DNA of 64,000 nt from Anaerolineaceae bacterium (GCA_034435955.1 DAOTWA010000027.1:16325-80324), one strand, 5' to 3'; numbered from the stretch's first letter, positions 23,730 to 56,403 are shown. Translations and numbers: made by a program. Notes: generated by a model from the letters alone, not told the origin.

Positions 23730-25210
23730 AGACCGGATTCCCGATTCGCTCAATCCTCATTCTTGGGCTGGTGGCAGCTCTATCGCTCGGCGCTTATCTC
23801 TTGTGGAGCGCTCAGAAGACCCAGGTCGGCTTTCCGCTCGACGATGCCTGGATTCATCAGACATATGCGCGCAATCTTGCGCTGCGCGGTGAGTGGTCTT
23901 TCCTGCCGGGTGAACCCTCCGCTGGGTCAACTGCGCCGTTGTGGTCATTGTTGCTGACGCCGGGATATTTGCTGGGCGCAAGTCCATTTACGTGGACCTT
24001 TATCCTCGAATGGTTGATGTTGTGGGGCCTGGCGCTGCTCATGGAGATGGGCCAGCGGCGTCACCTTCCTCGCCTGACTGCATCGGTACCCTGGGCCGGT
24101 CTGTTGGCGGTGTTGGAATGGCATTTGGTGTGGGCAGCCGGATCGGGAATGGAAACCCTACTCCAGGCACTTCTCATAACCGCTGTGCTGATTGGATTGG
24201 AGGGCGATCATACACGCTGGGCCCTGCTCGGAGCTGGCGTCGGCCTTTCCGCCTGGGTGCGGCCGGATGGCATCACCCTGCTTGGACCGCTACTATTCAC
24301 TGCTTTTCTTGCACCCGGAAATGCCAGGGAACGCACACGCCGCAGCGCAATTTCGATCGCTTGTTTTGCTGCGCTTTTCCTCCCTTACTTATTGTTCAAC
24401 TTCCGCCTGGCGGGGACGATCTGGCCAAACACCTACTTCGCCAAGCAGGCCGAATATGCTATTTACCAGAAGCTTCCTCTGTCTCTGCGTTATCTGGGAG
24501 AGTTCAAGCTGCCCTTAATTGGAACTGGTTCGCTCCTGCTACCCGGGGCAATACTCTTCGCCTGGGGTTCAGTACGCGGCCGTCGTTGGAATCGAATTGG
24601 TGGTTTAATTTGGTGGTTGGGGTATCTGGGCATCTATGCGCTTCGCCTGCCGGTCGATTACCAGCACGGACGGTACATCATCCCGGCCATGCCGATCTTC
24701 TTTCTCTGGGGGACTGTCGGGCTGGCCGAATTTGTCTTGAGCGTGCGAGGGATGAGAGGCTGGGAGTGGGTGGTCGGCCGCGCTTGGAGTCTGTCTGCTA
24801 TCCTGGTTTTGAGCGCCTTCTGGGTAATTGGCGGCAACGCATACGCCACAGACGTGGCGATCATCAATACCGAAATGGTGCGCACTGCGCAATGGATTGC
24901 GGCCAACACGCCTGCTCATGCGCTGGTAGCCGCACATGATATCGGCGCGCTAGGTTTCTACAGCCAGCGCAGGCTGGTGGACCTGGCCGGCCTGGTATCG
25001 CCTGAAGTGATCCCTTTCATAAGAGATGAAACGCGAATTGCCGAGTACTTGGATGCACAGAAAGTCGACTACCTGGTAACGTTCCCCACCTGGTATCCGC
25101 AGATCACAGATAGGCTTCGGCCTGTGTTCATAACGGGCGGCACATTTGCCCCCTCGAATGGCGGTGAGAACATGGCCGTTTACCGGTGGGGGCTGGGATC
25201 GTCCCCGTAA
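23726..25210 (+). CDS. polytopic membrane protein, GT-C-like, paralogue 7
   Basis: 494 aa. Motif QVGFPLDDAWIHQTYARNLALRGEW after TM1. ATGA start/stop overlap with the upstream gene at 23726-23729. Confidence 0.55.
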   Translation: MKTGFPIRSILILGLVAALSLGAYLLWSAQKTQVGFPLDDAWIHQTYARNLALRGEWSFLPGEPSAGSTAPLWSLLLTPGYLLGASPFTWTFILEWLMLWGLALLMEMGQRRHLPRLTASVPWAGLLAVLEWHLVWAAGSGMETLLQALLITAVLIGLEGDHTRWALLGAGVGLSAWVRPDGITLLGPLLFTAFLAPGNARERTRRSAISIACFAALFLPYLLFNFRLAGTIWPNTYFAKQAEYAIYQKLPLSLRYLGEFKLPLIGTGSLLLPGAILFAWGSVRGRRWNRIGGLIWWLGYLGIYALRLPVDYQHGRYIIPAMPIFFLWGTVGLAEFVLSVRGMRGWEWVVGRAWSLSAILVLSAFWVIGGNAYATDVAIINTEMVRTAQWIAANTPAHALVAAHDIGALGFYSQRRLVDLAGLVSPEVIPFIRDETRIAEYLDAQKVDYLVTFPTWYPQITDRLRPVFITGGTFAPSNGGENMAVYRWGLGSSP

Positions 25211-34001: not shown

Positions 34002-35279
34002 TCATTCTTCTCTTTCTTCAGCGATCCCGTCTGATCCGGATGCAATGTCTTGTTCGAGCGCCGATGGGTCATCCGCGATGGGTGAGTTTTCCAGCGCCGA
34101 GCGTATGCTTTCCTGCAGTTCTTTCCTGCGCGGCCGTCGTTTTCCCAGGCTCTTCATCGACCCAAGCAAATCCCCGGTTACTTTGCGGGTGATGGCCTTG
34201 AGGGTTTGGCTGGAGAGCTTTTCTCCACGCTCGAACCAAACCGCGGCCGCATAACCCATTCCCACCGTCGTTGAGGAAGCCACGGCAGCCGCCAGCAGCC
34301 ATCCAGGCGGGCCGCCCAGCTTGCTCAGCTCCTGGAAGACCGTGCGTCCCAGATATCCAAGACCGAAGGTGGCGACCAGCTCGCGAGCCCGCTCCAGGGT
34401 GATTTTATAGTTGTAGATGCGCGCAATGCCCAGCACCATCATCGATTGGGTGACAACCAGCGGGGCGAAGTCCACCACCGGCAGGGGAGCCAGCGCGATC
34501 ACCGCGGCGACGGAGGCCGCGCTGGCGATGGCGCGCCAGGCAAGCTGCCAGCGGTACGCGGGCAAAGCGCTTCCTAGCGCTGCGACGATGGACGGCTCGG
34601 CGGCGGCAATGGCCATCAACACCTTTCCTACCTGTTTGCCCTCCTTCGCGCTGATCGGCAACACCTGCTCTGGCTTGAGGCGCAAGTCGGCGGCCGCCCG
34701 TTCGACCACTTTATCCGCGTCGCGCTTAACCAGATCGATCTTGTTCAGCACCACCACATACGGCTTTTTCAAGCCTGTCAGCTCATCGAATAGTTCTTGC
34801 TCGGTGCGTTTGACACCCTGGATGGCGTCGAACATTATGATGAGAAAATCCGCTTTGCGGGCCGCTTCCAACGCAAGGGATTTCTCGCGCTCGCCCACTT
34901 CGCCGACAGCGTCGGCGCCAGGCGTATCCACGATAGTGAAAAGGCCTGCATCGGCCTGCTGACTGGCGCGCGTGGTGCCCGGCAACGGACTGACCGCGGC
35001 CAGGTCCTCCTTGGACCGCACCATCTGGTTATAGAGGGTGGATTTACCCACATTGGCCGGTCCAACCACCACCACGGCGCGCTTCTGGCCGAAAGCCAGC
35101 TTAAATTGGGACAAAGACATGCGCAGGAGGATCTTGAGCAGGTTTGGGTCTGATGGAAAAGAGGTGAAGATCGATTGCAGGTCACGCCGATCCTCAGGCG
35201 GAAGGGATTCCCAGACCCCTTTGAGCATCTCGCGGGTCTCATCCGGTAATTCTTTTAGTAATTCGCTAAATGTTGGCAT
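34002..35279 (-). CDS. GTP-binding protein (MMR_HSR1-type GTPase) with C-terminal DUF697-like membrane domain
   Basis: G1 GPANVGKST, G3 DTPGAD, G4 NKIDL, G5 SAKEG. Followed by hydrophobic helices (AASVAAVIALAPLPVVDFAPLVV..., GWLLAAAVASSTTVGMGYAA). The ATG at 35279 lies 1 nt after the recJ stop. Confidence 0.75.
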   Translation of the reverse strand: MPTFSELLKELPDETREMLKGVWESLPPEDRRDLQSIFTSFPSDPNLLKILLRMSLSQFKLAFGQKRAVVVVGPANVGKSTLYNQMVRSKEDLAAVSPLPGTTRASQQADAGLFTIVDTPGADAVGEVGEREKSLALEAARKADFLIIMFDAIQGVKRTEQELFDELTGLKKPYVVVLNKIDLVKRDADKVVERAAADLRLKPEQVLPISAKEGKQVGKVLMAIAAAEPSIVAALGSALPAYRWQLAWRAIASAASVAAVIALAPLPVVDFAPLVVTQSMMVLGIARIYNYKITLERARELVATFGLGYLGRTVFQELSKLGGPPGWLLAAAVASSTTVGMGYAAAVWFERGEKLSSQTLKAITRKVTGDLLGSMKSLGKRRPRRKELQESIRSALENSPIADDPSALEQDIASGSDGIAEEREE

Positions 35280-35280
35280 A

Positions 35281-37692
35281 CTAATTCAACGCCTCGCCAG
35301 ATTGAGCCATCGGCAGGAGGGCATTTACTGGAGCACGGCGGTAGTACAGTCTGTAGGCAGCGCTCTCCTCTAAGGTAGATTTAAGCCCTGAAAATGCCTT
35401 ATCCAGCTCTGGATTTTCTCGCCTATCCCCTTCCTGTATGAGAATTGTATCCCCATCCGGGAAAACTGTCACACGGATGTGGCCGGCGGCTTCCAGCCAG
35501 GCTATGCCAGCCTTCACCGCCGCAAGGCTTTGCGCGCTTGCAGCGGCCAGCGAGCCGAAGCTAGCCTTGCCATCCAGGGCATGCAAAGCATACTTGCACA
35601 ACCCGGCGAGGCGCTTGAGGAAGGCGTCGGCCTCGTCCATGTTCGCGTCCACGGCAAAAAGCACCAGTGTTGCCGGGCGAACTTTACGGCAGGCCTGTTC
35701 CAAAACATCCGGGCCGGGAGGAATGGTCCACAGCGCCAGCACCTGGCCGGGTTCCAGCCGGTTGCGATCCCGACCCAGGGCTTCAATTTGAGGATCTGCC
35801 TCAGCGTAGACTTGCAGTCCGCTCACGCCAGCCAGCTCTCTCAGCCGTCGCAGAGGTTCTGGATCGTTGCGATAGTCGATCACCTGTATTGCTGGCGCTG
35901 CGCCTATCTCGACGCCGACATCTTCCCTCAGACGTGCATCCAGCCATTCGATCTGTACTTCTTCCTGACCGCGGTAGTCGCTGGAACGCAGCGAGTAAGC
36001 CAGATCAAAGCGGCCAGCCGGCAGTGGCGGCGTGATCCCTCCCGCACCTGCCTGCCACCAGATGATCTGGTATGAGTTGCCGCTTTCGTCTTCGACGCTG
36101 AGTTGAAGGTGTTCGCCATCCCTACCCAGTGCTGTCTGGCCTGTGATGTGGAGGTCGCGGCAGGCCAGGACAAGGGGCGGATTTCCCGGGCCGAAGGGCG
36201 CCAGACGCTCGATGTCGTTCACCAATGGGAGGTCCACAGCGGAGAGATGCAGATATTCGTCGATGGTCAGGGTTGGTTTGTATTCAACTCCGCCAAGCAT
36301 TTCGGCCACCGTGCGTTCCAGGCCGCGCTGAAAGGCAGGCAGGTTGGCCGGGTCCATAGATAAGCCGGCCGCCATCGGATGGCCGCCAAAATTGAGCAGC
36401 AGCTCCTTTTGAGCGGCAATGGCTGCGTTGATGTTGACCCCTTCCACCGAGCGGGCAGAGCCTCGCGCTGGTTCGCCGGGTGGAGTTGCGAGCAGCACGG
36501 TCGGGCGGTGATAGATCTCCGCCAACCGACTTGCCACGATGCCAATCACTCCCGCCGGCCAGGAAGCGTGCCATAACACCAAGGCAGGCCGGTCCAAAAG
36601 TGAGTGGTCGCGCTCAATCTGTCCCTGAGCCGCCTGGAAGACTTGGTCGGTGAGCAGCTTGCGACGCGCATTCAGCGCCTCTAACTGGGCGGCCAGAATG
36701 CGCGCTCTGGATAAATCATTCGTGGTGAGAAATTCGACGGCCGGATTGGCATCGCTTAAACGGCCCAGCGCGTTCAGACGCGGGGCGATGGTATAGGCGA
36801 TGTGTTCCTCCGTGGCGCGGCTCAGGTTCAGTTCGGCCAGTTCTGCCAACGCCTGGAGGCCGATTCTCTCAGTGCGGCGCAAAACTTCCAATCCACGCTG
36901 GACCAGATAGCGCGTCTCCCCACTCAGGATGGCCAGATCGGCCACCAGCCCTAATGCAACCAGATCCAGATGCCGGCCAGCGGCTTCCGCCTGTCCTGCG
37001 CGGTCATAAAGGTATTCGGCCAGCTTATAGGCCACACCCACGCCGGATAGGTTGGCCAGAGGATGGTTCTCCGCCAGCCGTTTGGGGTTGATGACGGCGT
37101 TGGCCGGAGGAAGGCTAAGCGGCAGGTCGTGATGGTCGCTGACGACCACATCCACCCCTTGCGAGCGGGCATAGGCAATCGCGTCGTGGGCAGTCACGCC
37201 CGTGTCGCAGGTAAGCACTACCTTCGCGCCGCCTTCCAGCGCGCGCCGCAAGCCGGGCAGGCTGATGCCGTGGGATTCATCTGCCCGTACGGGTATGTGG
37301 AATTCGACTTTTGCTCCCAGATTGCGCAGCGCCTCGACCAGCAGTGTGGTCGAAGTCTGGCCGTCGACATCGAAATCGCCCCACACGAAGATCGTCTCGC
37401 CCGAGCGGATGGCGCGCAGGATGAGTTCGCCGCCATCGATCAGATCGGGCAAATCTTCGGGCGGTGAAGGCCGGTAAAGAGTTGGATCGAGGAAAGGAAG
37501 CGCCGTTTCCGGCGAAATCAATCCACGCCTTGCCAGGGTGGCAGCCAGGAGTGGATGCCCGCCTACTGCTGTGGTCAATTCTATCGGCGGCTCTACCGCT
37601 TGGGGTTCGATCCAGGTGTAGATGCTCAGAAACGTATCTCCGCGATCTGCTCGAAATCGAAACCAGCCGGAGGCGTCACGTCTGGCTCCCAT
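35281..37692 (-). CDS. recJ: single-stranded-DNA-specific 5'-3' exonuclease RecJ
   Basis: DHH motifs VWGDFDVDGQTS, CDTGV, VSDHH and a DHHA1-type GGHPMAAG. The start is uncertain: ATG 37692 overlaps the upstream nuclease gene by 67 nt, and a non-ATG start near 37630 is possible. Confidence 0.88.
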   Translation of the reverse strand: MGARRDASGWFRFRADRGDTFLSIYTWIEPQAVEPPIELTTAVGGHPLLAATLARRGLISPETALPFLDPTLYRPSPPEDLPDLIDGGELILRAIRSGETIFVWGDFDVDGQTSTTLLVEALRNLGAKVEFHIPVRADESHGISLPGLRRALEGGAKVVLTCDTGVTAHDAIAYARSQGVDVVVSDHHDLPLSLPPANAVINPKRLAENHPLANLSGVGVAYKLAEYLYDRAGQAEAAGRHLDLVALGLVADLAILSGETRYLVQRGLEVLRRTERIGLQALAELAELNLSRATEEHIAYTIAPRLNALGRLSDANPAVEFLTTNDLSRARILAAQLEALNARRKLLTDQVFQAAQGQIERDHSLLDRPALVLWHASWPAGVIGIVASRLAEIYHRPTVLLATPPGEPARGSARSVEGVNINAAIAAQKELLLNFGGHPMAAGLSMDPANLPAFQRGLERTVAEMLGGVEYKPTLTIDEYLHLSAVDLPLVNDIERLAPFGPGNPPLVLACRDLHITGQTALGRDGEHLQLSVEDESGNSYQIIWWQAGAGGITPPLPAGRFDLAYSLRSSDYRGQEEVQIEWLDARLREDVGVEIGAAPAIQVIDYRNDPEPLRRLRELAGVSGLQVYAEADPQIEALGRDRNRLEPGQVLALWTIPPGPDVLEQACRKVRPATLVLFAVDANMDEADAFLKRLAGLCKYALHALDGKASFGSLAAASAQSLAAVKAGIAWLEAAGHIRVTVFPDGDTILIQEGDRRENPELDKAFSGLKSTLEESAAYRLYYRRAPVNALLPMAQSGEALN

Positions 37693-38516
37693 TCGGTTTC
37701 GTACGCGTCAAAGTCACCAGCTCTGACGCCGCGTTCGCACAGTGAGCGGTAAGAACAGTACAGGCAACGCCTCTCGTCGACAGTCAGGTTAAATACATCC
37801 GCGCGGTTGGCAGCAATTTCCTTGATCAGTGCTGACAGGTAACCTTCATCGGCGTCATATTGTGACTGATCATAAGGCAGGCGCTCAGGCTGGTCAGGAA
37901 AATTGGCGTACCAGTAGATCATTTCAACCTGCTCAGGTTTCACCTTCGCAGCCCCGGTCAAATGGCCGCCGGCGCGCGCCGCCAGGAAGCGGTAAACCCT
38001 TGTTTGCAGTCGGGACAACAGGCGCTCGGGTGGGCTTTTCCTGCGATCCGTCTTCCAGTCGGCGATCGTGATGCGGCCGTCCTGACCAATTACCAGCAGA
38101 TCGAATTGGGCCACCAGGCGGAAGCCGGCCAGTGTGGCCGCCAGGTTCAGCTCTGAGTAGCGTTGGCCGGGTAAGTCGGCCGGGCGGGCGAGCAGATAAT
38201 TGTTCCACCACCGTTCCAGGTCACTGCCGGGGATGGCAGCGGCCAGCGCAGCCGCTTCGGCACGCAAAGTTTCCTCCGGCAGGCCGGTCAGGTGCTGCTG
38301 CACCAGGCGATGGAATGCCTGACCCTGGCGCAAATGGCGTTCCTGTTCCAGTACCGGCTCGCTTTCAACCGCAGGCCAGGAAATCTGCAGCAGGTAGCGC
38401 AACTGGAACCGCCTTGGGCAGTCCACATAATCCTGCAGGTTGCCCTGACTGAAGAGGAAATCGGGCGGCAGAAACGGCTGCGGAGGCTGTAGCTTATCCG
38501 GTTTCGGCGGCTGCAT
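37626..38516 (-). CDS. stand-alone PD-(D/E)XK nuclease with Cas4/AddB-type four-cysteine (Fe-S) signature
   Basis: One N-terminal Cys (YVDCPRRFQLRY), the nuclease core FDLLVIGQDGRITIADWKT, and a C-terminal CLYCSYRSLC (C-x2-C-x5-C). Start set to ATG 38516 (MQPPKPDKL), overlapping the upstream helicase stop by 23 nt. Confidence 0.75.
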   Translation of the reverse strand: MQPPKPDKLQPPQPFLPPDFLFSQGNLQDYVDCPRRFQLRYLLQISWPAVESEPVLEQERHLRQGQAFHRLVQQHLTGLPEETLRAEAAALAAAIPGSDLERWWNNYLLARPADLPGQRYSELNLAATLAGFRLVAQFDLLVIGQDGRITIADWKTDRRKSPPERLLSRLQTRVYRFLAARAGGHLTGAAKVKPEQVEMIYWYANFPDQPERLPYDQSQYDADEGYLSALIKEIAANRADVFNLTVDERRCLYCSYRSLCERGVRAGDFDAYETEWEPDVTPPAGFDFEQIAEIRF

Positions 38517-40746
38517 GGATGGATTTCTCCCAAAATGTCTGCAACGCAATGAAAGGCGCCGCCGGCTGCTGATCGCCACGCTGGCCGCTGTTCCAGGTGA
38601 CAATCAGCTCTTTTTTGGCGCGGGTGATGCCGACATACAGCAGGCGCAGCCGCTCGGCGGCGTATGCCAGGCGCGCCTGGCGAGTGGCGACACCTTCCTC
38701 CAGATTCCAACCAGCCGGATCGCCGGCGATCAGGGCTTGAAGCTGGCTGAGGGTCTCGGCTGTTAGGTTGAGATGACCTCGCACGAAGTATTTCTCGGCA
38801 ATGTAGCTGTCGCCGGGCTGGCCTGAGGGGAAATCGTAGCTGTTCACTGAGAGCAGGTACACGCGATCCCATTCGAGGCCTTTGGCTTTATGCATGGTCG
38901 CTACCACTACTTTGCCTTTATGCCTTTCGGGATCAAAGCCGGTGTCTTCGTCGCTTAAGCCGAGCATTTTGCGCTCATTGCGGGCGATCACCAGCAGCTC
39001 CTCGCTCAGGCGGGTCAAATCCCATTCCGGGTGCTCGTTTGAGGTCTGGCGTAAGATGCCAGCCAGTTTGTGCGCGACCGCCAGGTCGGCTGGACGATCG
39101 AACAAATCCTGGGCCAGCGTCAGGATGAGCTGCTCGATGGGCAGCAAGCTGGCGCTCTGCCAGCGCTGGACAAGCTCGCGAAATCCAACCAGCAGCTCAT
39201 ATACATCGCTGTCGTTCTCGGCAAGGCCGCTTTCCTCCAGCCAATCGCGTTGGGGGCGCGGCCACAGGTAATCCTCTACCCGCGGCAGTTTACGTATCAG
39301 CCGGAATCCGCGCTCGATGGCCGCGGTAGCAACCTCGTCCTCCTGCTCTGGACGCTGCCAGGCGCGCAATGCATTCGCCAGTTTGGCAGCGGCGCCAGGT
39401 TCACCCAGGTATTCGACCATCTTACCCAAGCGGTCGGCTGCCTCGCGCGTGGAATGGGTGCTCTTGAGGATCTCGATATAAGGGATGCGACGGGCCTTGA
39501 GCGCTTCGACCAGCTCTGCGCCGCGGTCATTGCGCGGAACCAGCGCCGCGACGGTCCCATCCGGGTGAGCGGCTATCCAGCTTGCCAGTGAATCGGCCAC
39601 CAGGTTCAGCTCCTCTGCCGGGGTTAGCTTCCGGGCGAACAGGTGAATGGCTCCCGGGTCGTCGGGTGGGTTAGGCTGTGGATCCCCGGGCGGTGTGGGC
39701 AGGATGTAAGGCAGCGTCAGTGTTCCACGGAGCTCCTCCACCGGATGTTCATCACGCGACCAATCGATCAGGAAATTTGCCAGGCGCAGGATGCTGGCAG
39801 TCGAACGGCCTGAGTTGGGCAGCTCGCGGGACTCGACGTCCTCGCGCTTTAGAAAATCAATGAGGAATTTTGGGCTGGCAGTGGTGAAGGTCTCATATAT
39901 AGATTGGTTAGGGTCCCCGACGCGCACCCAGTTACCGCCCTCGCCGGCCAGCAGGCGCAGGATTTCCTCCTGCAGCCGGCTGCTGTCCTGGGCTTCGTCC
40001 TCGAGGATGTATGGCCAGCGGCGGCGCAGCCTGGAGAGGTAGTCCGGATCATTGAGCAGCACCTGCAAAGCCAGTCGGATCAGATCGTCGAAGTCGACCG
40101 CACCGCGGTAAGCCAGCGCACGCTGGTAATCGGCGTAGACCTCGGCGCCCATCTCTACCAGCGGCAGGCTGGCGCCGCTCTCCTCCAGCCGCTGGCGCAA
40201 CTCGGCGGGGGTTAACTGCATGTCCTTGGCTGTCTTAATGAACGCGCCGGCAATTTCCATTACCAGCTCAGGCCAGCGTTCTCGACGGTCGCGGCGCTGG
40301 TTGAAGTCGTCTCGATCTGGATCCAGAAATAAGTCGGCTGCCTCCTGGTTGGAGTGGATCCACGCATCCACCGATGCCCGTAAAATGCCTTCGGCAGCCC
40401 GCTCGTCAATGATGGCGAAATCGCCAGACAAATTGGCCAGCTCGGGACGTTCGCGCACGATGTCATGCGCCAGACCGTGCAGGGTGCGCACCCGATAGCC
40501 CACATGCGGCAATAAACCGCGCTCGGCTATAAAAGCGGCCACCCTACGAGCGAAATTGTCCACCGCTGAGTTGACCAGAGTCACGATCAGCACTTCCTGG
40601 TCCTCTGCTACGCGCCCTTCTGCTATCAACCGGGCAGCCAGATAGGAAAGCGTTTGCGTCTTTCCACTCCCTGGTACTGCCGAGACTCCCATCCAGCCGC
40701 CGGAGTAATTGAGCACCTCTTCCTGCAAAGGGCGGGGTTTAAACAT
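38494..40746 (-). CDS. UvrD/Rep/AddA-type superfamily 1 DNA helicase (all motifs intact, no nuclease domain)
   Basis: Motif I AVPGSGKTQT, Ia IVTLVNSAVDNF, II YILEDEAQDSS, III VRVGDPNQSIYETF, V ATMHKAKGLEWDRV, VI LLYVGITRAKKELIV. ATG 40746 overlaps the upstream stop in ATGTTTAA. Confidence 0.88.
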   Translation of the reverse strand: MFKPRPLQEEVLNYSGGWMGVSAVPGSGKTQTLSYLAARLIAEGRVAEDQEVLIVTLVNSAVDNFARRVAAFIAERGLLPHVGYRVRTLHGLAHDIVRERPELANLSGDFAIIDERAAEGILRASVDAWIHSNQEAADLFLDPDRDDFNQRRDRRERWPELVMEIAGAFIKTAKDMQLTPAELRQRLEESGASLPLVEMGAEVYADYQRALAYRGAVDFDDLIRLALQVLLNDPDYLSRLRRRWPYILEDEAQDSSRLQEEILRLLAGEGGNWVRVGDPNQSIYETFTTASPKFLIDFLKREDVESRELPNSGRSTASILRLANFLIDWSRDEHPVEELRGTLTLPYILPTPPGDPQPNPPDDPGAIHLFARKLTPAEELNLVADSLASWIAAHPDGTVAALVPRNDRGAELVEALKARRIPYIEILKSTHSTREAADRLGKMVEYLGEPGAAAKLANALRAWQRPEQEDEVATAAIERGFRLIRKLPRVEDYLWPRPQRDWLEESGLAENDSDVYELLVGFRELVQRWQSASLLPIEQLILTLAQDLFDRPADLAVAHKLAGILRQTSNEHPEWDLTRLSEELLVIARNERKMLGLSDEDTGFDPERHKGKVVVATMHKAKGLEWDRVYLLSVNSYDFPSGQPGDSYIAEKYFVRGHLNLTAETLSQLQALIAGDPAGWNLEEGVATRQARLAYAAERLRLLYVGITRAKKELIVTWNSGQRGDQQPAAPFIALQTFWEKSIHAAAETG

Positions 40747-42871
40747 TCTGCACCTCCGCCGCGACTGGCAGATGGCGCAGCACCTGCTGAAAGGCGCGCA
40801 GGAGCTGGCCTTGCTGCTCATAGCCCTGCTCGCCCAGCTCACACAGCCCCAGGAAGATGCGCCTGCGGCAGCGTCGGATCAGGCCGGCGGCCAGGCGGTA
40901 GAGCGCTTCCTGACGCGTCTCAAACTCGTCTGCATCGGTCCATCCTCGGCCGGCAGGCCACTCCCGGCTGAGCACGTATGGATGGGTTAACGGCTGATCC
41001 AGCCGTTCCCACCAGCCAGCGCTGCCTACATCCAGCCAGAATTGGACCTCGACCGGGCGATTGGCCATCAGAAAGGTATACGCCGGCGCCAGCAGGACAG
41101 CGTCTTCCAGGCCCCTCTGCCAGGCCTGCAGGTACTGGGCAGCGATCACCCCTTCCCTCACCATCCGCACATATTCCTCGGCAAGGGTAAAATCCTCCAA
41201 AGTCGGCGCAGCGGACATCACCCAACGGAACTTGCGCGCCGATTCAATGAGCGTGGCTGCGGCCGCGCCTGCGTCATAATTGTGGTGAAAGCCATATCCT
41301 GGCTGGGATAAAACCTCACCAAAGAGCCGGCTGAAGAAGGCATCCAGCTCAATCTTGGGGCCTTGACGGTAGGCTTCGATCCAGTCGCGCAGAGCCTGAT
41401 AGCGCTGTCCACTTGTGTAGGTGATACGCTGCTGCATCTCGGTTCGAATGGCGTCGAAGCCGCCCAAGATATTCTCGCGCGGCCGATAAACGATCTCAGC
41501 CAGCAGACGCGCCCGTACCAGGTCCAATCCTTCGATGGACTGCATCAGGGCAAAGGCGACCTCGGTACGCGTCGGGCGGGGCTGCCATTCAGGGTGGGCC
41601 AGATGGGCCAGGGTGAGCAAACAACGTACAGCCGGCTCTTCGCGCAGGCTGCGGGAAGGGCGATGGGTGCGTACAGGTATCCCAAGGCGCTCGAGACGGT
41701 AAGAGAGCGAGAAGCGCAGCGCATCGGAGAGGAAGGGCGCCAGGACGACGATCTCACCGGGAGGCACATTCTGCCGGTTGACCAGATGATCGATGCGCAT
41801 AGCCACCCAATCCAGCATCTCAGGATAAAAACGCTGGTACTCGAAAGAGAAGGATGCGCGGATTTCTTCGGGCGCCGGTTCTGCTTCTTCCGTGGAGACG
41901 GATACCCGTCCAAGTACGCGCGCCAGGCGATTGGACAACCCGCGCAAACCAGGACTGCTGACGAAGCTCTCCTGCAGCGTGAGCCTGGTCTGGCAATGAT
42001 CTTTCAACGCGTATCCGCTCAGCGGATCGGCGGCCAGGAAGCGTCTGAAGCCGGCCTCCCAATCGTAAACCAGCAAGGCCGATTGGGTGTGAGGAAGCCA
42101 ATCCGTTAATATGTCGTGCGCGAAAGGGCTGTCCTCTTCCACATTATCCACGATCAGGTGCCGGTAGCGGCTGAATAAATATTCCCGGAATATGGGCAGC
42201 GGCCAAAGGTGGCGTTTGAATACTTCCACCTGCAGCGAAAAATCCAGCAGATTGTTTTCCAGGCAGTAGCGGCGGAAGCGCGTGGCGCATTCCTGGGCAT
42301 CTGCATAGACGCGGGCCTGGGAGCCCTCGCCAATCCAGGCGCTGGAGAGGCGTTGTCCGATTTCCTCGTACGGGAAACCCACCAGCGCAGCCTTGTTAAG
42401 GTTATCGAGAATCTGGCCATACAGGCGGTTGGGATCGATGATCAGAGATTCAAACAGGCCCTGGTTGAGGGCAGGTCGAACCAGACGCGCCATGAAGTAC
42501 TGCGCGGTTTCCAGGGTCAGGAAAGTGGGCGGGTTTTGCGGTCTGGCGAATCCAGCCGCTCCGGCGACCAACGGCCAGAATAAATCCACCATACGCTGGG
42601 CCAACCCGCCCATGGTAGCCAGATTAATGAGGCCGGGCGAATCCAGCGCCGGATCGCGTGCGGCCTGCAGATAGGGCGCTCTCAGCGTCCGTTGCGGGAC
42701 AATCACCAAGATCGATCCCGGTGTTATTCCCGCTGAGATCAACGCCCGTAGGCGAGCCACCGCGGCGGTCGTCTTACCGCAACCCGCCGCTCCTTCGATA
42801 AAAGCGGAGCCTTCCAAAGGGAGGTCGACGATTTCTTTCTGCCGTGCAGTCAGAGGGATGGCAGACATCAC
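40739..42871 (-). CDS. UvrD-like superfamily 1 ATPase with degenerate helicase motifs (AddB-like accessory subunit candidate)
   Basis: Walker A EGAAGCGKTTAA is intact. Motif II reads LIVDNVEEDSP (DN in place of DE). The motif III region VYDWEAGFRRFLAAD lacks the conserved Gln. GTG 42871 or ATG 42868 lies 3-6 nt after the exonuclease stop. Confidence 0.7.
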   Translation of the reverse strand: MMSAIPLTARQKEIVDLPLEGSAFIEGAAGCGKTTAAVARLRALISAGITPGSILVIVPQRTLRAPYLQAARDPALDSPGLINLATMGGLAQRMVDLFWPLVAGAAGFARPQNPPTFLTLETAQYFMARLVRPALNQGLFESLIIDPNRLYGQILDNLNKAALVGFPYEEIGQRLSSAWIGEGSQARVYADAQECATRFRRYCLENNLLDFSLQVEVFKRHLWPLPIFREYLFSRYRHLIVDNVEEDSPFAHDILTDWLPHTQSALLVYDWEAGFRRFLAADPLSGYALKDHCQTRLTLQESFVSSPGLRGLSNRLARVLGRVSVSTEEAEPAPEEIRASFSFEYQRFYPEMLDWVAMRIDHLVNRQNVPPGEIVVLAPFLSDALRFSLSYRLERLGIPVRTHRPSRSLREEPAVRCLLTLAHLAHPEWQPRPTRTEVAFALMQSIEGLDLVRARLLAEIVYRPRENILGGFDAIRTEMQQRITYTSGQRYQALRDWIEAYRQGPKIELDAFFSRLFGEVLSQPGYGFHHNYDAGAAAATLIESARKFRWVMSAAPTLEDFTLAEEYVRMVREGVIAAQYLQAWQRGLEDAVLLAPAYTFLMANRPVEVQFWLDVGSAGWWERLDQPLTHPYVLSREWPAGRGWTDADEFETRQEALYRLAAGLIRRCRRRIFLGLCELGEQGYEQQGQLLRAFQQVLRHLPVAAEVQNV

Positions 42872-42874
42872 GGT

Positions 42875-43453
42875 TTAGATCGAACTTGTGGCCATGTGAA
42901 GCAGCAAAGCTCGCGCCAGCAGAGCATCATCCCGGGAGCGGTGGCTGTTAGGCAGCGGAATGTGGCACTGCAGCCCGGCGTTTTCCAGCGAGATCCAGCG
43001 GTAACTTCCTCGCCGCGAATCCCATTCCCCATGAAAAATTGAATAGATTTCCATTAAATCAACCAAATCGGGAGTGAAATCCCAGAGCAGTTGGCTGTTT
43101 CGATGGGACTGGCGCATCATACGCAGGTCGAAGGGGGCATTGTAGGCGGCCACGTGCCGGTTTTGCAGCAGCGCCTGAACACGGGGCCAAAGCTGCGCCC
43201 AAGTTGGCGCTCCCTGCACCATCTCATTAGTGATGCCATGGATGAGCATGGCGTCGCGCGGTATGGGCGTAAGTGGCTTTACCAGCGAATCGAGCAGAAC
43301 TTTGCCATCCCAGTCGAGTATAGATACTTCGATGATCTCAGCCCGCTCGTCCAGGCCGGTGGTCTCGGTATCCAGGAACAGCGGCTGCTCGTTCAGCAGC
43401 TTGCGCGCCTGGAAGATGGCTGCCAGTCGATCTTGCTTGCGTAACGATAACAT
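42875..43453 (-). CDS. DEDDh 3'-5' exonuclease (DnaQ/epsilon-like)
   Basis: Exo I LFLDTETTGL, Exo II VAAYNAPFDLRMM, Exo III HRSRDDALLARAL (H-x4-D). Confidence 0.85.
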   Translation of the reverse strand: MLSLRKQDRLAAIFQARKLLNEQPLFLDTETTGLDERAEIIEVSILDWDGKVLLDSLVKPLTPIPRDAMLIHGITNEMVQGAPTWAQLWPRVQALLQNRHVAAYNAPFDLRMMRQSHRNSQLLWDFTPDLVDLMEIYSIFHGEWDSRRGSYRWISLENAGLQCHIPLPNSHRSRDDALLARALLLHMATSSI

Positions 43454-43597
43454 GATCAGGTCCCTGCGCCACTATCGGTGCGGCCGATAGAATATAAGCA
43501 GGCAGTTGGCAGAAGATGGTGAAAGTTTATTCCATCTAGGTTGGTGTGTCAATCAGATCACCCACTCCCAGACGGCGGTGGTTGTCGGAAATCGGTT

Positions 43598-44473
43598 TTA
43601 CCGGAGGGTCAGGGGGAAATAAAAGGAGTAGTTTTCGAACATGTCATCCTGGGTCAAATAGATCGAATCATCACTGCTCGACGTTTGAATTCCAGAACGC
43701 AATTCGACGCTTACGGTGTGCATCCCTTTGCCGGCGGCAAGCGTCCAAACCAGCCGCTCCTGGAAAGGCTGCCAGTTGCCCCATTCTCCGCCGTCGTTGC
43801 GCAGGCGCATCTCCGTCCAGATGTCTTTCCCATAAATGTATAGAGATACCTGCCGCGTATTGGTCTTGTCCGCCTCCCCGTCGATCACCACCGGGTAGAC
43901 GTCAGGACGGCGCCCGAAGTCCTGCACCCAATAAGCGCTGGCGTAGCCCGAACCGATCTCGCGGTAATTTGGGTTGAGGATATTCTCACGATGGCCTGCG
44001 CTGCCCATCCAGGCTGTGACCACTGCCTGAGGATCGGGGTAATTCCAGGCGATATTCTCACCACGATAATCCGCGCCTGAATAATAGTTATCCAGCCGCG
44101 ACGACCATGAACACTCCCACACCAGATTTCCCTGTACACGGTCATAGGTATCGTGTTCGACGTACTGATCCTGGAGCATATCGGCGGCGTGATAGCGGGC
44201 TGCGTCGTCGAGGTGAGCGCTGCGCTTGAGCGGCGGCAGACCGTACTTCGCCCGCTCCTGATTGGTCAGCACGACCACCTGCTGTTCGTAATCAGCGTTC
44301 TCCGCCGCGACCAGCGAGCCGCCGCAGCCGGTGAAGGTTGGCGTGAGCAGCGAACTGAGCGGCCCATCGACGGCAATCGCGCGTCCCGCTGCCGGAGAGA
44401 CAGGCGCCAGCGACAGGATTAAATTTACGAGGAGGAGAGCAGCCAGCCGCTTACCGGGTAATGGTTTTGGCAA
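43598..44473 (-). CDS. secreted CAP/SCP (PR-1-like) domain protein with extra C-terminal domain
   Basis: Signal peptide KRLAALLLVNLILSLAPVSPAAG. CAP motifs LTNQERAKYGLPPLK...AARYHAADM...GENIAWNY...AWMGSAGHRENILNPNYREIGSGY. Confidence 0.8.
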   Translation of the reverse strand: MPKPLPGKRLAALLLVNLILSLAPVSPAAGRAIAVDGPLSSLLTPTFTGCGGSLVAAENADYEQQVVVLTNQERAKYGLPPLKRSAHLDDAARYHAADMLQDQYVEHDTYDRVQGNLVWECSWSSRLDNYYSGADYRGENIAWNYPDPQAVVTAWMGSAGHRENILNPNYREIGSGYASAYWVQDFGRRPDVYPVVIDGEADKTNTRQVSLYIYGKDIWTEMRLRNDGGEWGNWQPFQERLVWTLAAGKGMHTVSVELRSGIQTSSSDDSIYLTQDDMFENYSFYFPLTLR

Positions 44474-44698: not shown

Positions 44699-45661
44699 TT
44701 ATGGCGTCGGATTCTCCCAATAGGCCACCTGATCGAACGAGACGCTCAACTTCTCGGTTTGATTAGCCCCCACAAACAGTCCAAAACCGCCTTCCTGGAC
44801 GAAGGTGCTGTCACTCACCTCTTTCAACAGCGTCCCATTGGCATAAAGTATGAAGCGGTTGTCGACCGCCATCAACCCGATCCGGTTGGTCTGGTTCGAT
44901 CCGACCAGTATGGGGGTGCCTTTCGTCCAAGGGATCAGCGATGTCATGGTCTTGCCGTCCCATTTGCGGAACGAGTAACGCCCGTCGCAGGTAAAACCGA
45001 CCAAATAACCTTGATTAGCCGCCTGGATATCTGGCACACGCACAATGGCCCCGTAGCGGTCCCCACCCATGCAGGTCCCGATCTTAGCCGTCACCTCCAG
45101 ATAGAAGTTTTTGACCTTTGGCCAGGACAACCGCCACCCGTCAGTCGTGGTCAGACCCGTCATCACCAGGGCCCCATCTTTGACCTCCACCGCAGTAAAC
45201 TGATCCTCGCCGAGCGGCCAGTTGCGCCCATCGTTGAAGTTGTCCACCCAGGTCGGGCTGCCGAGGCGCAGTTTAGGATCTCCGGGTGGTGGTGTGAATG
45301 TGGGGCCAGCCGTCGCCGCAGGGGTGCCGGTCGCTGTCGGAGAGGCTGTGGCCGTGGCCGTTCCGCTTGGGACAGCGGTTCCGGTCGGCGCAGTTGTGCT
45401 GCCGGGCGTGATAACCGTTTCAGTCGGCGGCGCCGGGTAAGCGGGCGTTTCCTGCGGCAGGACGGTGACCACCGCCGGGCCAGTGGGTTGGGGTGCGGTG
45501 GGCTGCGCTGCTGGTTTGGTTGCGGTTGGCATGGAAGTCAAGATTGCAGCCACCTGAGAGGCCATTTCTGCTTCGGACTGCGTTGGATTGGCCTGTTGCA
45601 GGATACCACAGGCGGTCAAAATAAAGGTCAGAGCGATAAAAATTATCCAGTTGCGCTTCAT
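44699..45661 (-). CDS. lipoprotein with long Pro/Thr/Ala linker and jelly-roll-like domain (paralogue of 29756-30559)
   Basis: MKRNWIIFIALTFILTACG (lipobox LTAC). Linker PTATKPAAQPTAPQPTGP...TATATASPTATGTPAATAGPTFTPPPGDP. The C-terminal domain aligns with the other paralogue (GDP..LG.PTW.D.FNDG, DFYLE, C.G.DRYG, GY...F.CDG.Y, LIPWT, NRIGLMA, LYANG.LLK, GLF). Confidence 0.8.
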   Translation of the reverse strand: MKRNWIIFIALTFILTACGILQQANPTQSEAEMASQVAAILTSMPTATKPAAQPTAPQPTGPAVVTVLPQETPAYPAPPTETVITPGSTTAPTGTAVPSGTATATASPTATGTPAATAGPTFTPPPGDPKLRLGSPTWVDNFNDGRNWPLGEDQFTAVEVKDGALVMTGLTTTDGWRLSWPKVKNFYLEVTAKIGTCMGGDRYGAIVRVPDIQAANQGYLVGFTCDGRYSFRKWDGKTMTSLIPWTKGTPILVGSNQTNRIGLMAVDNRFILYANGTLLKEVSDSTFVQEGGFGLFVGANQTEKLSVSFDQVAYWENPTP

Positions 45662-45793
45662 GTTGGCAACCCCTTTTTCTCCTGTTTTTGGGCCAGTGCC
45701 GGCGACGTCAAGCCATGGACAGTCATTTGCATGACGTGCAGGGGCATAAAAAAGTTCCGCTCTATTTCATTATAGCCGGGTTTATGCCACAGG

Positions 45794-47289: not shown

Positions 47290-48843
47290 CTAATCGGATT
47301 TTGATCCCTGGCCAGATGGTGTGGCTGCGTTATCCCACGGGGGAATGTCATGCACTAGCCAACTGCGCCCATCCTGGGCGACCAAAATTACAGCGTCCTG
47401 CGGTCCCCAGCTTCCGGCGGTGTAATTAGGGAATGTGGCTGGGCTTTCCGTTTCCCAGGCATGGAGTATCGGTTCAAGAAGCGTCCAGGCCATCTCCACC
47501 TGGTCCGCCCTCATGAAGTTCGTGGCATCGCCCAGCATGACGTCGAGCAGAAGTGTTTCGTAAGCTTCTGGAGGCCTGGTCTTGAAAGCTTCTGCATACT
47601 GGAAGCTCATATCGACCGTACTGATGTGCATGCTCAGTCCAGGCTGTTTGGCCTGAAAGCGCAAGACGATGCCCTCTTCCGGTTGTATGTGAATGATGAT
47701 CCGGTTGGGCTGCCAGTTTTCGCTTGCCGAGCTTGGGAAAGATTGATGCGGCACGGGACGAAACTGAATGATCACTTGCGAGGTGTGAACCGGCATGCGC
47801 TTGCCGGTGCGCAGGTAAAAAGGCACATCCTGCCAGCGCCAGTTGTCCACGAACAGCTTGAGCGCGGCAAAAGTTTCTGCGGTTGAATCGGGACTTATTC
47901 CCGGTTCGTCCCGATAGGCAATGACATGCTGGCCTTCGATCCAGCCTGCTCCATACTGGCCGCGCACGGCGAATTTGTGGACTTCGTCCTCCGGAATCCG
48001 GCGGATGGCGCTCAAAACATCCATTTTTTTATTGCGAATCTCATCGGCTTCGAAAGAAACCGGTGGTTCCATGGCCACCAGACACAGAATTTGAAGTAGA
48101 TGGTTCTGCACCATGTCCCGCAACGCACCGGCGTGATCGTAATAGGAACCACGGTGTTCTACTCCGATTTGTTCGGCCACCGTGATCTGTACATGATCAA
48201 TATATCGCCTATCCCAAATCGGTTCGAATAATGCGTTAGCGAAACGGAAAGCCAGGATATTCTGAACGGTTTCTTTTCCCAAGTAGTGATCGATGCGGTA
48301 AATTTGGGACTCATCGAAAACGCTCCTGAGCTTTTGGTTGAGCGCGCGCGCTGATTCCAGATCTCGCCCAAAGGGTTTTTCCACCACGATCCGTGCCCGC
48401 TTCCGATCGCGGGACAGATGAGCCCTGCCGAGTTGTTCCGTGATGGGCTCCATCAATTGGGGCGGCGTAGCCAGGTAATAAATACGGTGGCAGCTTACCC
48501 CCAATCGTTGGTCATTCTTCTCCAGCGCGCCGCTTAAATTCTGGTAAATATCCGCGGTGGTAAAATCGCCAAAGATAAGGGTCCAGACGTGGGTAAATTC
48601 CTCCCAGTCATTTGCATCCACCCGCCCATGGCGCGAGAACTGTTCTACCCCTTCCCGCAGGTGGTTGAAGTACTCATTGCGGTCGACTTCTTTTGCATCC
48701 AATCCAATGATGTTGAAGTGGTCAGGCAAAAATTTCTCGAGGTATAAATCATAAATGGCGGGCACCAGTTTCCGCCAGGTCAGATCGCCCGCGGCGCCAA
48801 AAATTGTCAGAGTGCACGGCTCCGGTCGCAATTCAGCGTTCAT
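47290..48843 (-). CDS. zwf: glucose-6-phosphate 1-dehydrogenase
   Basis: IFGAAGDLTWRKL (NADP site) and RIDHYLGKE (active-site motif). Start moved to ATG 48843 (MNAELRPEPCTLTIFG), 10 nt after the gnd stop. Confidence 0.93.
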   Translation of the reverse strand: MNAELRPEPCTLTIFGAAGDLTWRKLVPAIYDLYLEKFLPDHFNIIGLDAKEVDRNEYFNHLREGVEQFSRHGRVDANDWEEFTHVWTLIFGDFTTADIYQNLSGALEKNDQRLGVSCHRIYYLATPPQLMEPITEQLGRAHLSRDRKRARIVVEKPFGRDLESARALNQKLRSVFDESQIYRIDHYLGKETVQNILAFRFANALFEPIWDRRYIDHVQITVAEQIGVEHRGSYYDHAGALRDMVQNHLLQILCLVAMEPPVSFEADEIRNKKMDVLSAIRRIPEDEVHKFAVRGQYGAGWIEGQHVIAYRDEPGISPDSTAETFAALKLFVDNWRWQDVPFYLRTGKRMPVHTSQVIIQFRPVPHQSFPSSASENWQPNRIIIHIQPEEGIVLRFQAKQPGLSMHISTVDMSFQYAEAFKTRPPEAYETLLLDVMLGDATNFMRADQVEMAWTLLEPILHAWETESPATFPNYTAGSWGPQDAVILVAQDGRSWLVHDIPPWDNAATPSGQGSKSD

Positions 48844-48853
48844 TTTTCTTCCC

Positions 48854-50266
48854 TTACCCTTTTTCCCATACCGTATGGAAGATGCCCTTTTCATCGGTGC
48901 GCTCGTACGTGTGGGCGCCAAAATAGTCGCGTTGTGCCTGGATGAGATTGGCCGGTAACCAGGCACTGCGGTATCCATCGAAATAAGCTAATGAAGCTGC
49001 AAGGGCAGGCGCAGGCACACCGGTGAAAGCCGCTTCTTGCACAACCAGGCGCAGGTCTTTAACTCGCTCTTTCAATCGGGCGCTCAATTCTGGATCGAGC
49101 AGCAGATTGGCCAGATCGGAGTTGGTTCGATAGGCGGCGCGTAAATCCTCAAGCACGGCTGCACGGATGATACAGCCTCCCCGCCAGATGCGGGCGATCT
49201 CTTCCAGATCGAGATGATACGCATATGTCTGGGAGGCAGTGCGCAACAGGGCCATACCCTGGGCGTAAGTGATCAATGCAGCAGAATAATAGGCATTACG
49301 CAGGCGGGGCAGGAAGGTATCGCGACCTTCGCGGACTCGCCCGATTTTATTTTCATAGATCTTACTGACGGCCCCCCTCACTTCTTTGAAGGCGGATAAG
49401 TCGCGCATGGCTACGGCCGCATCGATGGTCGGTACGGGTATCTGCAAGTCCATGGCGGATTGGGAAGTCCATTTACCTGTGCCTTTTTGTTTGGCTTCGT
49501 CAAGGATGACATTGATTAGTTTGCGGCCTGTTTTTTGATCTACCTCGGCGAAGATGTGAGCGGTGATTTCGAGCAGGTAGCTATTCGTATCGCCTGCTGC
49601 CCATTGCGTATAGATGGTTTCCAGATCCTCATCGGTCAAACCCATGCCGCGTTTCATCAGGTCATATGTCTCGGCGATGATCTCCATCAACCCATATTCG
49701 ATCCCGTTATGCACCATCTTTACGTAATGGCCAGCCGATCCAGGCCCCAGATAAGCGACGCACGGCTCGTCTCCAACCTTGGCGGCCACCGCCTCGAAGA
49801 TCGGCCGCACCCGTTCATAAGCGTCCTTCGGACCTCCCGGCATAAGGCTTGGGCCATGGCGCGCGCCAGACTCTCCGCCGGAAATTCCCACCCCAAGATA
49901 ACGGATGCCCCTACTTTCCAATGTTTGGGCGCGTAAATCGGTATCTTTGAAGAATGAATTGCCGCCGTCGATAATCAGGTCGCCGGGATGCAGATAAGGC
50001 AACAGTTCGTGGATCACGGCATCGACTGGCGCGCCAGCCGGCACCAGCATCATTACCACCCGGGGGGAGATTAATGCGCTGATGAAGTCCTCCAGATTCT
50101 CCGACGGCGTCACTTTAAGGCCGCGAGCTTCATAACCGAGCTGTTTCACTTTCTCGAGGTCGCGATCGTATCCGGCTATGGCGAACCCGTGCTCGGCCAT
50201 GTTCAATACGAGATTGCGCCCCATGACTCCCAGTCCCACCATGCCCAGATCGCAGATCGGTTCCAT
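48854..50266 (-). CDS. gnd: 6-phosphogluconate dehydrogenase, decarboxylating
   Basis: MVGLGVMGRNLVLN Rossmann motif. 470 aa, typical Gnd length, with GNSFFKDT, GISGGESGAR and AHTYER motifs. Confidence 0.93.
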   Translation of the reverse strand: MEPICDLGMVGLGVMGRNLVLNMAEHGFAIAGYDRDLEKVKQLGYEARGLKVTPSENLEDFISALISPRVVMMLVPAGAPVDAVIHELLPYLHPGDLIIDGGNSFFKDTDLRAQTLESRGIRYLGVGISGGESGARHGPSLMPGGPKDAYERVRPIFEAVAAKVGDEPCVAYLGPGSAGHYVKMVHNGIEYGLMEIIAETYDLMKRGMGLTDEDLETIYTQWAAGDTNSYLLEITAHIFAEVDQKTGRKLINVILDEAKQKGTGKWTSQSAMDLQIPVPTIDAAVAMRDLSAFKEVRGAVSKIYENKIGRVREGRDTFLPRLRNAYYSAALITYAQGMALLRTASQTYAYHLDLEEIARIWRGGCIIRAAVLEDLRAAYRTNSDLANLLLDPELSARLKERVKDLRLVVQEAAFTGVPAPALAASLAYFDGYRSAWLPANLIQAQRDYFGAHTYERTDEKGIFHTVWEKG

Positions 50267-50350
50267 AAATTCATCCTTTCTCCTTGTAAATAATTCTTAC
50301 GATGATAAGTCTATTCATTTCGGCCCTTGCCGAGCGTTCTAAAGGATTGT

Positions 50351-50968
50351 TTAAACTACCAAGCCGATACGCGCCAGTTCTTTTGCGGTTTGCTCCAACG
50401 AGGTGTGATGGATACTGCGAATGCCCAATCCTCTGGCGACCTCTGCGAACAGCGCACGATCGTCCAGGTAGACCACCTCTTCAGGATCAGATTGGGCTGT
50501 ATCCAGCGCGATTCGGTAGATGTCGGCATCCGGTTTGCGGAAGTGGACGAAGCTGGAAGCGATGAAGAAGTCCACAAATTCTTTGAGAGCGAATTTCTGA
50601 ATGCGATAGATGGTCAATTCACGCCCCTCGTTGCTCACCGCTGCAACTCTCAAATGATAATTTTCTTTCAATCGCTTTACATAATCGATCATATCAGCAA
50701 AGGGTTGTGATTGGGCGAACATGAAGGCTTTGAAATCTTCTATTGTGAAGGTGCGTGGTGTGTAGAATACAACTCGACGCAGATATTCCTCCAGGCTGAG
50801 TTTACCCTCTTCGTAGGTATCGAATGTGAGGTGATGGCGCTCATCCATCTCTTCGTGATCGAGACCGAACTGGCGGGCGGCTCTCCTCCGCGCGCCGCGG
50901 TCCCAACCGTTGGTCAGCAGCACCCCGCCGACATCCAAGAATAGTGTTGTAATGGGTATTCCTGGCAA
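50351..50968 (-). CDS. HAD-superfamily phosphatase, YihX-like (subfamily IA)
   Basis: Motif I LFLDVGGVLL (D-x-G as in YihX), motif II AVSNEG, motif III RKPDADIY, motif IV YLDDRA. There is no in-frame ATG after the tal-pgi stop, so the start is tentatively TTG 50968. Confidence 0.65.
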   Translation of the reverse strand: MPGIPITTLFLDVGGVLLTNGWDRGARRRAARQFGLDHEEMDERHHLTFDTYEEGKLSLEEYLRRVVFYTPRTFTIEDFKAFMFAQSQPFADMIDYVKRLKENYHLRVAAVSNEGRELTIYRIQKFALKEFVDFFIASSFVHFRKPDADIYRIALDTAQSDPEEVVYLDDRALFAEVARGLGIRSIHHTSLEQTAKELARIGLVV

Positions 50969-50993
50969 TGTTCGCCTGCCGCTTGATTGATAC

Positions 50994-53843: not shown

Positions 53844-53884
53844 AACAACCTCCGCGGGCTTGTCGTTGGGACGATAAGGGCGTC

Positions 53885-55987: not shown

Positions 55988-56403
55988 TTCACCTTCCTCG
56001 ATGACCATTAAGAAAACCGCTTTATAAGGTTTACCCACTCCCCATGGAGGATAGCTCGGCAATCGTATTTTACTGTGTCTGGGTCTGGCGTTTAAAGCCC
56101 GGGGGTCGCATCTCGATTGGCATAATAATCTCCGGACCAGCCCTGCATGCCAGCCCGGAAGTAACTGCTCACCACTAAGTCGCTCTCCCGCAAAGAAGCT
56201 CAACACGGGGAAATCTCATTGCGGGCTGCCCGATATTGCAGGTCGGGCAAATGCACTCTACTGGTAACACAGTCCTGCGTGCAGGGAGGAGTCACACGCA
56301 GGTTTCGCGTGGTAACGCTCTTACACTATTCAGGATAACCTCAACTGTCTAATCTGACTTTATAACCATCTAATGGATTGCTTAAGATGACCTTAACCGC
56401 CGA

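Follow-up and report, generated by a model that had tools for sequence, protein, structure and literature searches.

Textbook accounts of bacterial DNA-end resection center on three machines, RecBCD, AddAB, and AdnAB, and treat the single-strand exonuclease RecJ as a separate back-up pathway. Within AddAB, the AddB subunit retains only the Walker A motif of a helicase, a motif that adds nothing to ATPase activity or unwinding but stabilizes the Chi complex (PMC3064778). The iron-sulfur (Fe-S) nuclease domain of AddB and AdnA is responsible for end binding and for cleavage of the 5' strand (PMC12094033). Reduced variants of AddAB exist, as the Thermus 'AddA' is only 857 aa long (PMC9751324), and passages in Hudaiberdiev et al. 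2017 (PMC5704561) describe both a monophyletic clade of solo Cas4 proteins in the Chloroflexi and operons, mostly from the Clostridiales, in which unfused genes for UvrD and a Cas4-like protein (pfam12705) lie in a non-defense context and for which a role in repair was suggested. A 64,000-nt stretch of DNA from an Anaerolineaceae bacterium (hereafter the window) carries, on its minus strand at positions 34002–43453, a cluster of six closely spaced genes, four of which (helA, helB, nuc, and recJ, encoding a helicase-like protein, a helicase, a nuclease, and RecJ) form a conserved module that is so far undescribed in the literature searched. With odds slightly better than even (a probability of roughly 0.55), the four products constitute one multi-subunit AddAB/AdnAB-like DNA-end-processing machine built from unfused parts, and the module probably resects broken DNA ends.

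Scanning a single genome from each GTDB species for helA gave at least 600 matching stretches, 590 of them confirmed, and the neighborhood counts rest on the best 80 of the at least 590 helA loci (one per genome, all 80 in Anaerolineae-type metagenome-assembled genomes), with most neighboring open reading frames (ORFs) clustered and annotation for some only. Unsupervised clustering of the ORFs at these loci kept only four families around helA, in 69, 66, 43, and 39 of the 80 loci, with any other neighbor family limited to at most eight. Counting only loci with enough downstream sequence for the next gene, helA is followed by helB at 63 of 69, helB by nuc at 49 of 62, and nuc by recJ at 37 of 58, and the genes are tightly spaced in the other genomes as well, with median gaps of +5 nt (helA-helB), -4 nt (helB-nuc), and +5 nt (nuc-recJ). 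Divergence from the window copies is correlated across loci for four of the six protein pairs (rho 0.54–0.69) and more weakly for helA-nuc and nuc-recJ (rho 0.26–0.32). The genes flanking the module vary from genome to genome, and those that recur as neighbors or insertions have unrelated housekeeping functions (among them an M14 peptidase, an acetyltransferase, glycosyltransferases, gyrA, and ATP-binding cassette (ABC) transporters). In the Anaerolineae loci seen, the module is single-copy and is surrounded by no defense-island signature.

The other two genes of the cluster, exo and the GTPase gene, have a much narrower distribution. None of the 80 loci contains a homologue of exo (Pfam RNase_T, 2.8e-16) or, beside the cluster, a homologue of the GTPase gene. 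All six genes are found in locus L082, from a close relative whose nuc is 91% identical to the window copy, while locus L081, from a relative with a helA that is 64% identical and whose 5.4-Mb contig is syntenic with the window over a long range, has helA-helB-nuc-recJ-GTPase and lacks exo; the GTPase gene adjoins recJ in these two loci only. Because exo and the GTPase gene neighbor the module only in very close relatives, the conserved functional unit consists of the four genes helA-helB-nuc-recJ, with exo a lineage-specific addition outside of it and the GTPase gene probably co-transcribed here, likewise outside of the module. A preliminary description of the window had proposed a five-part arrangement within a six-gene end-processing operon, bracketed by exonucleases of both polarities, and had not recognized it as a described system. 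The tight order and the junctions of that operon stand, as does its apparent novelty, as no description of the helA-helB-nuc-recJ module was found in the literature searched. Rather than being scattered in relatives, the genes keep their order in most of the 80 loci, and the tie of RecJ to the helicases and the nuclease is borne out by conserved synteny amid variable flanks. Only the helicase-helicase-nuclease-recJ part of the order is conserved, however, and the bracketing by exo is a genus-level peculiarity, so the unit has four genes and not the larger number first suggested.

The module also occurs outside of the Anaerolineae. A tblastn search of plasmids recovered it in its entirety on plasmid pSR56 of Salinibacter ruber M8 (phylum Rhodothermota), with identities to the window proteins of 46% (helA), 48% (helB), 39% (nuc), and 45% (recJ), under the annotations 'hypothetical protein', 'ATP-dependent helicase', 'PD-(D/E)XK nuclease family protein', and 'recJ'. 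The plasmid copies keep the DNVEE motif, the Walker A motif, and the four cysteines. Other S. ruber strains carry the four genes in identical order on mobile islands, and two metagenome contigs have them in order with a helA 64% identical to the plasmid copy. As the same four genes lie in the same order on a S. ruber plasmid and on islands, the module moves between phyla as a block, and the co-transfer of all four, the RecJ copy included, makes the strongest case for their working together. No relevant paper on the pSR56 module was found in the literature searched. Genes adjacent to the Salinibacter copies include a regulator with an XRE-type helix-turn-helix (HTH) and a Peptidase_M78 domain (ImmA/IrrE-like; L083 7005–8183, L087/L088 8212–9471), as well as integrases and the toxin-antitoxin pairs PemK, BrnT/BrnA, and SocA; a damage-sensing protease-repressor could control the module in this host, or the neighborhood may indicate an island of the mobile or defense kind.

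The most unusual member of the module is helA. The Pfam UvrD-helicase model matches this protein at residues 8–57 only, none of the NCBIfam models matches it, and against PDB a single-sequence search gave no match and a profile search reached the Walker A region only. An AlphaFold2 (AF2) model of low confidence (predicted local distance difference test, pLDDT, 61) was matched over its whole length by Foldseek to PcrA, UvrD, AdnB, AddB, and RecB (E 7e-18 to 1e-14); since such a model matches all of these alike, the fold as modeled is that of superfamily 1 (SF1), of the generic UvrD/PcrA kind rather than specific to AddB or RecC. The helicase motifs were mapped by hmmsearch against HelD and by an hhalign comparison with the helB family, the latter aligning 425 columns at E 1.5e-4. 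The Walker A motif (GxGKT) is kept, the catalytic Glu of motif II is replaced by Asn243 (invariant across the family), the Gln of motif III is lost (a non-conserved Glu occupies its position), and the Arg of motif IV is replaced by Val304, and these motif states are invariant in the family. The protein is thus predicted to be a nucleotide-binding, hydrolysis-dead SF1 paralogue. Despite the dead motifs II, III, and IV, the median identity of helA across loci is 58%, compared to 59% for helB, a degree of conservation that implies a partner-dependent role.

The databases hold more than 5,000 relatives of helA, nearly all unnamed or labeled 'hypothetical' or 'superfamily I helicase', with the few that carry an organism name assigned to the Anaerolineae or the Chloroflexota. 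At E<=1e-30 the family forms 567 clusters (50% identity), and the full-length matches among the best 150 cluster representatives are all about 700 aa long and free of a nuclease fusion. Two matches of odd length were considered as fusions and rejected as read-through artefacts (P0255, a read-through with an FtsX permease, and P0248, which has no domains). Additionally, a lone helA-like protein (22% identity over 91% of the length) is encoded on pILYOP01 of Ilyobacter polytropus, a Fusobacteriota replicon (L084 8989–10962), unaccompanied by helB, nuc, or recJ, and the dead-helicase family therefore reaches beyond the module.

The second protein, helB, has both UvrD domains (Pfam UvrD-helicase, 4.5e-46, and UvrD_C, 4.5e-20) and a complete set of family-invariant motifs (Walker A, DEAQD, GDPNQ, SGRS, and VGITRA), and is predicted from these to be a motor of subfamily SF1A with 3'-5' polarity. 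Its best PDB sequence matches are UvrD and PcrA, and PcrA is also its best-scoring curated NCBIfam model, yet it falls far under the NCBIfam cut-offs for PcrA, UvrD, Rep, AddA, and RecB; scores against the AddA models are 86 and 80 bits (cut-offs 861 and 708) and against the RecB model 93 bits (cut-off 696). The 750-aa protein ends after UvrD_C and has no PD-(D/E)XK match in Pfam. A nuclease match in Pfam is absent from helB in the window, L081, L085, and L087, and the helB ORFs in related loci, at 740–863 aa, are below the size expected with a fused nuclease domain.

The nuclease itself is encoded by nuc, which matches Pfam PDDEXK_1 (E 1.8e-30). Its invariant residues (C33, C251, C254, C260, D139, D153-W-K155, Q171, and Y175) fit the signature of the Cas4 family, namely an N-terminal Cys with C-x2-C-x5-C, D...(D/E)xK, and QxxxY. 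A confident AF2 model (pLDDT 83; predicted template modeling score, pTM, 0.82) was matched by Foldseek to cyanobacterial ACE1 Cas4-family enzymes (E 1e-7), the AdnA nuclease domain (E 4e-7), and Cas4, with the highest template modeling (TM) score, 0.57–0.61, going to the Fe-S nuclease domain of AdnA. By analogy with that domain, nuc is predicted to be a 5'-strand nuclease. Repeat scans found no CRISPR array in the window, and no cas-like gene was seen among the annotated neighbors of the module, most neighbor ORFs in the 80 loci having been clustered only; judged by its sequence, nuc is a solo Cas4-like protein outside of the CRISPR-associated sense. It may correspond to the Chloroflexi solo-Cas4 clade noted in PMC5704561.

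The fourth gene encodes a bona fide RecJ by sequence, scoring 490 bits against the RecJ equivalog model TIGR00644 (cut-off 396.9) and containing the DHH, DHHA1, and RecJ_OB domains, with the DHH motifs visible in the sequence. Translation likely begins at CTG 37629 rather than at ATG 37692, as a GGAG motif lies about 10 nt upstream of the CTG and RecJ homologues begin 2–6 residues before a conserved W-I/L-E-P motif. For the last ~210 residues (~583–803; window 35281–35950), neither the Pfam families nor the solved RecJ structures give a match. This C-terminal region, a candidate docking domain for the helicase and nuclease partners, is conserved in the RecJ of the Salinibacter plasmid, to which it aligns as far as residue 787. 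Most of what the preliminary description had said of the individual proteins is upheld by these results: an intact UvrD-like motor, a second UvrD-like protein with Walker A kept and motif II crippled (to which the losses in motifs III and IV can be added), and a free-standing Cas4/AddB-type Fe-S nuclease, its 296-aa sequence being assigned by hidden Markov models to a nuclease family. Of the two recJ starts that it had offered, ATG 37692 or a non-ATG codon near 37630, the second is favored, in the form of the in-frame CTG 37629.

The data themselves establish the identity of the domains, the state of the motifs, the conserved order and coupling of the four genes, and their joint transfer. From these components we infer a machine in which each protein would contribute one activity at a broken end. 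In this scheme helB would move 3'-5' on the 3'-ended strand and unwind the duplex from the break, helA would act as a non-motor scaffold and strand guide similar to AddB, AdnA, or RecC, and nuc, by way of its Fe-S 'staple', would bind the end and cut the displaced 5' strand. RecJ would then digest the 5' strand processively, leaving a 3' tail for the loading of RecA. As the conserved unit contains no 3'-strand nuclease, resection may not need regulation of the Chi type.

The module shares with AddAB an active SF1A motor paired with a helicase-like subunit in which Walker A alone survives, a resemblance between helA and the inactivated helicase-like domain of AddB that is one of function only, and also an Fe-S PD-(D/E)XK nuclease of the 5'-strand type and adjacent, translationally coupled genes. 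It differs in that AddA and AddB each carry a nuclease, whereas the single nuclease here is fused to neither helA nor helB, no AddA-type 3'-strand nuclease is present, the nuclease gene follows the gene for the motor and not that for the dead helicase, RecJ is part of the unit, and both helB and helA fail every curated AddA or AddB model. Similarly, AdnAB pairs two UvrD-like subunits and requires motor activity from just one of them, and nuc finds its best structural match in the Fe-S nuclease domain of AdnA, but AdnA and AdnB are each fused to a nuclease and AdnA keeps the ATPase motifs, while helA has lost motifs II, III, and IV. As for RecBCD, helB is under the RecB cut-off, and neither the module nor the 26 window ORFs (of 44) covered by the Pfam scan include a gene resembling RecC or RecD. 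As the defining features fail (fused nucleases and curated model scores), the module should not be filed under AddAB, AdnAB, or RecBCD. The operons described in PMC5704561 have two genes, and the passages that describe them name no dead-helicase partner, RecJ, or block transfer. Unwinding by a helicase, degradation of only the 5' strand, and 3' tails without Chi are features that the proposed machine would share with RecQ/UvrD plus RecJ (the RecFOR pathway) and with the eukaryotic Sgs1-Dna2, but unlike these it is encoded by a conserved operon that includes a dead-helicase subunit; the Fe-S PD-(D/E)XK nuclease is in common with Dna2, in which it is fused to an SF1B helicase. A broader proposal, which is offered tentatively and with the odds somewhat against it, is that the module represents a fourth and hitherto undescribed class of bacterial holoenzyme for resecting double-strand breaks, in which a dead-helicase scaffold and a motor are combined with a Fe-S nuclease that can detach and a RecJ that is integral, and that this holoenzyme acts on the 5' strand only and without Chi, is self-sufficient enough to travel between phyla on plasmids, and serves as the principal presynaptic machine of the Anaerolineae in place of AddAB, RecBCD, or AdnAB.

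Several observations weigh against a single machine. The nuc gene comes after helB and not after helA, so the arrangement is no simple split of addB, and about 20–35% of genomes lack nuc or recJ at the locus. Among the matches to the helA family there are no Rosetta-stone fusions of helA with its partners, the fold match of helA is generic to UvrD/PcrA and comes from a low-confidence model, and the window contains no SOS box (GAAC-N4-GTTC). Further, the S. ruber block sits among integrases, toxin-antitoxin genes, and the HTH + Peptidase_M78 regulator, a setting that fits a role in defense or plasmid benefit as well. A frameshift split of addB was rejected because nuc follows helB and because hundreds of species maintain this arrangement stably. 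It is rather unlikely that the module is mainly a foreign-DNA nuclease, degrading linear invader DNA in the manner of RecBCD or feeding guides or fragments to immune systems, although this would suit the plasmid and island context in Salinibacter, and passages in two papers link solo Cas4-family enzymes and UvrD-Cas4 fusions to defense (PMC5704561, PMC12094033). Searches of PADLOC-DB 2.0 gave weak matches, to GajB and a Cas4-like nuclease associated with Argonaute, but the matches are generic only (GajB/UvrD, Cas4-like, and DEDDh, with RecJ unmatched) and no specific system was matched. The single-copy loci of the Anaerolineae, with housekeeping or variable flanks and no defense-island signature, also argue the other way, as do the divergence of the proteins, which tracks that of the genomes, and the absence of helA relatives from the viral collections searched (IMG/VR and GenBank phages). 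Such a function overlaps with end processing, as AddAB and RecBCD do both jobs, and it is because of the housekeeping context in the Anaerolineae that defense is ranked below repair.

The frequent absence of nuc or recJ, in loci where helA and helB remain together, is also what would be expected of co-regulated repair genes that act separately, with helB feeding RecJ in the RecFOR pathway, nuc serving as an independent flap or end nuclease, helA as a regulator, and no holoenzyme formed. UvrD and RecJ work together in the RecFOR pathway of Deinococcus, and the lack of gene fusions and the PcrA-like score of helB are compatible with such an arrangement; it is judged unlikely in view of the joint movement of all four genes, including the RecJ copy, to Salinibacter plasmids, the recurrence of overlapping stop and start codons across the family, and the retention of a dead helicase in need of a partner. 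A machine directed at replication intermediates (reversed or stalled forks, gaps, or flaps) in place of two-ended breaks appears improbable, the least so favored of these explanations. Stalled forks are a site of action of both RecJ and UvrD/PcrA/Rep-type helicases in model bacteria, and the module has no Chi-type 3'-strand nuclease, both in keeping with such a target; the sequence data do not discriminate between this and the processing of broken ends, but the type of Fe-S nuclease is one used in AddB and AdnA for binding duplex ends (PMC3064778, PMC12094033).

If helA-helB-nuc-recJ does encode a single end-processing machine, its unbundled motor, scaffold, and nuclease, together with a hard-wired RecJ, all found class-wide, would show how such machines can assemble from free parts, and it would offer a natural system for asking what a 'dead' helicase subunit does. 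It would also fill a gap in the initiation of recombination for a large and mostly uncultured lineage. The Salinibacter plasmid copies place the module in a culturable host.

Direct reading of the window confirmed six minus-strand ORFs across the cluster (Table 1), and all of the ORFs and junctions agree with the coordinates of the six coupled genes in the preliminary description. Between exo and helA, a TAA is followed by 3 nt and GTG 42871, with an ATG at 42868. The helA and helB genes share 8 nt, ATGTTTAA, with GGAGG upstream, and nuc begins within helB, its ATG at 38516 giving an overlap of 23 nt and being preceded by a GGGAG motif. The TGA of nuc (37626–37628) overlaps the in-frame CTG of recJ as CTGA, while the alternative ATG start would create an overlap of 67 nt with nuc. 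Finally, the TAG of recJ is separated by 1 nt from the ATG of the GTPase gene at 35279. A consensus scan placed a promoter-like site upstream of exo, within a gap of 144 nt, where the transcription unit may begin, and no terminator-like site was found between the six genes in a scan of the window. Scans with Rfam, a tRNA finder, and tandem-repeat and direct-repeat finders gave nothing relevant.

Table 1. Genes of the cluster and the putative promoter within the window.
Feature	Position	Strand	Description
exo	42875..43453	-	192 aa, DEDDh (RNase T/DnaQ-like) 3'-5' exonuclease; Pfam RNase_T
helA	40739..42871	-	710 aa, predicted catalytically dead SF1 (UvrD-fold) protein; first gene of conserved module
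helB	38494..40746	-	750 aa, intact UvrD/PcrA-like SF1A helicase; predicted 3'-5' motor
nuc	37626..38516	-	296 aa, stand-alone Cas4-family PD-(D/E)XK nuclease with 4-Cys iron-sulfur site
recJ	35281..37692 (ATG) or from CTG 37629	-	5'-3' single-stranded DNA exonuclease; fourth module gene
GTPase	34002..35279	-	MMR_HSR1 + DUF697 membrane domain (Pfam)
promoter-like site	43524..43552	-	TTGACA-17-TAAACT, 10/12 matches; consensus scan only

Just upstream of exo lies a gene for a protein with a CAP (cysteine-rich secretory protein) domain (43598–44473, minus strand), and the same CAP-exo pair is present in L082. In L081, the position upstream of helA is taken by a 309-aa gene without a Pfam match, and neither a CAP nor an RNase_T gene was called. 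Farther upstream, at 44699–45775, two ORFs overlap on opposite strands (320 aa, minus; 338 aa, plus, without a Pfam match), of which the plus-strand ORF is probably spurious because in L082 a 320-aa gene is called on the strand of the module, also without a Pfam match. Elsewhere in the window, a 1305-aa protein (1299–5216, minus strand) has TPR at both ends and a long center without a domain match, and six same-strand ORFs of ~430–565 aa (15061–25210, plus strand) may be paralogous membrane glycosyltransferases; Pfam was applied to the five other than 19220–20521, with two weak matches to the PMT_2 glycosyltransferase family and three without a match. The region at 47290–56206 (minus strand) holds a pentose-phosphate cluster with transketolase, a 964-aa fusion of transaldolase and phosphoglucose isomerase, 6-phosphogluconate dehydrogenase, and glucose-6-phosphate dehydrogenase, in an order shared with L081.

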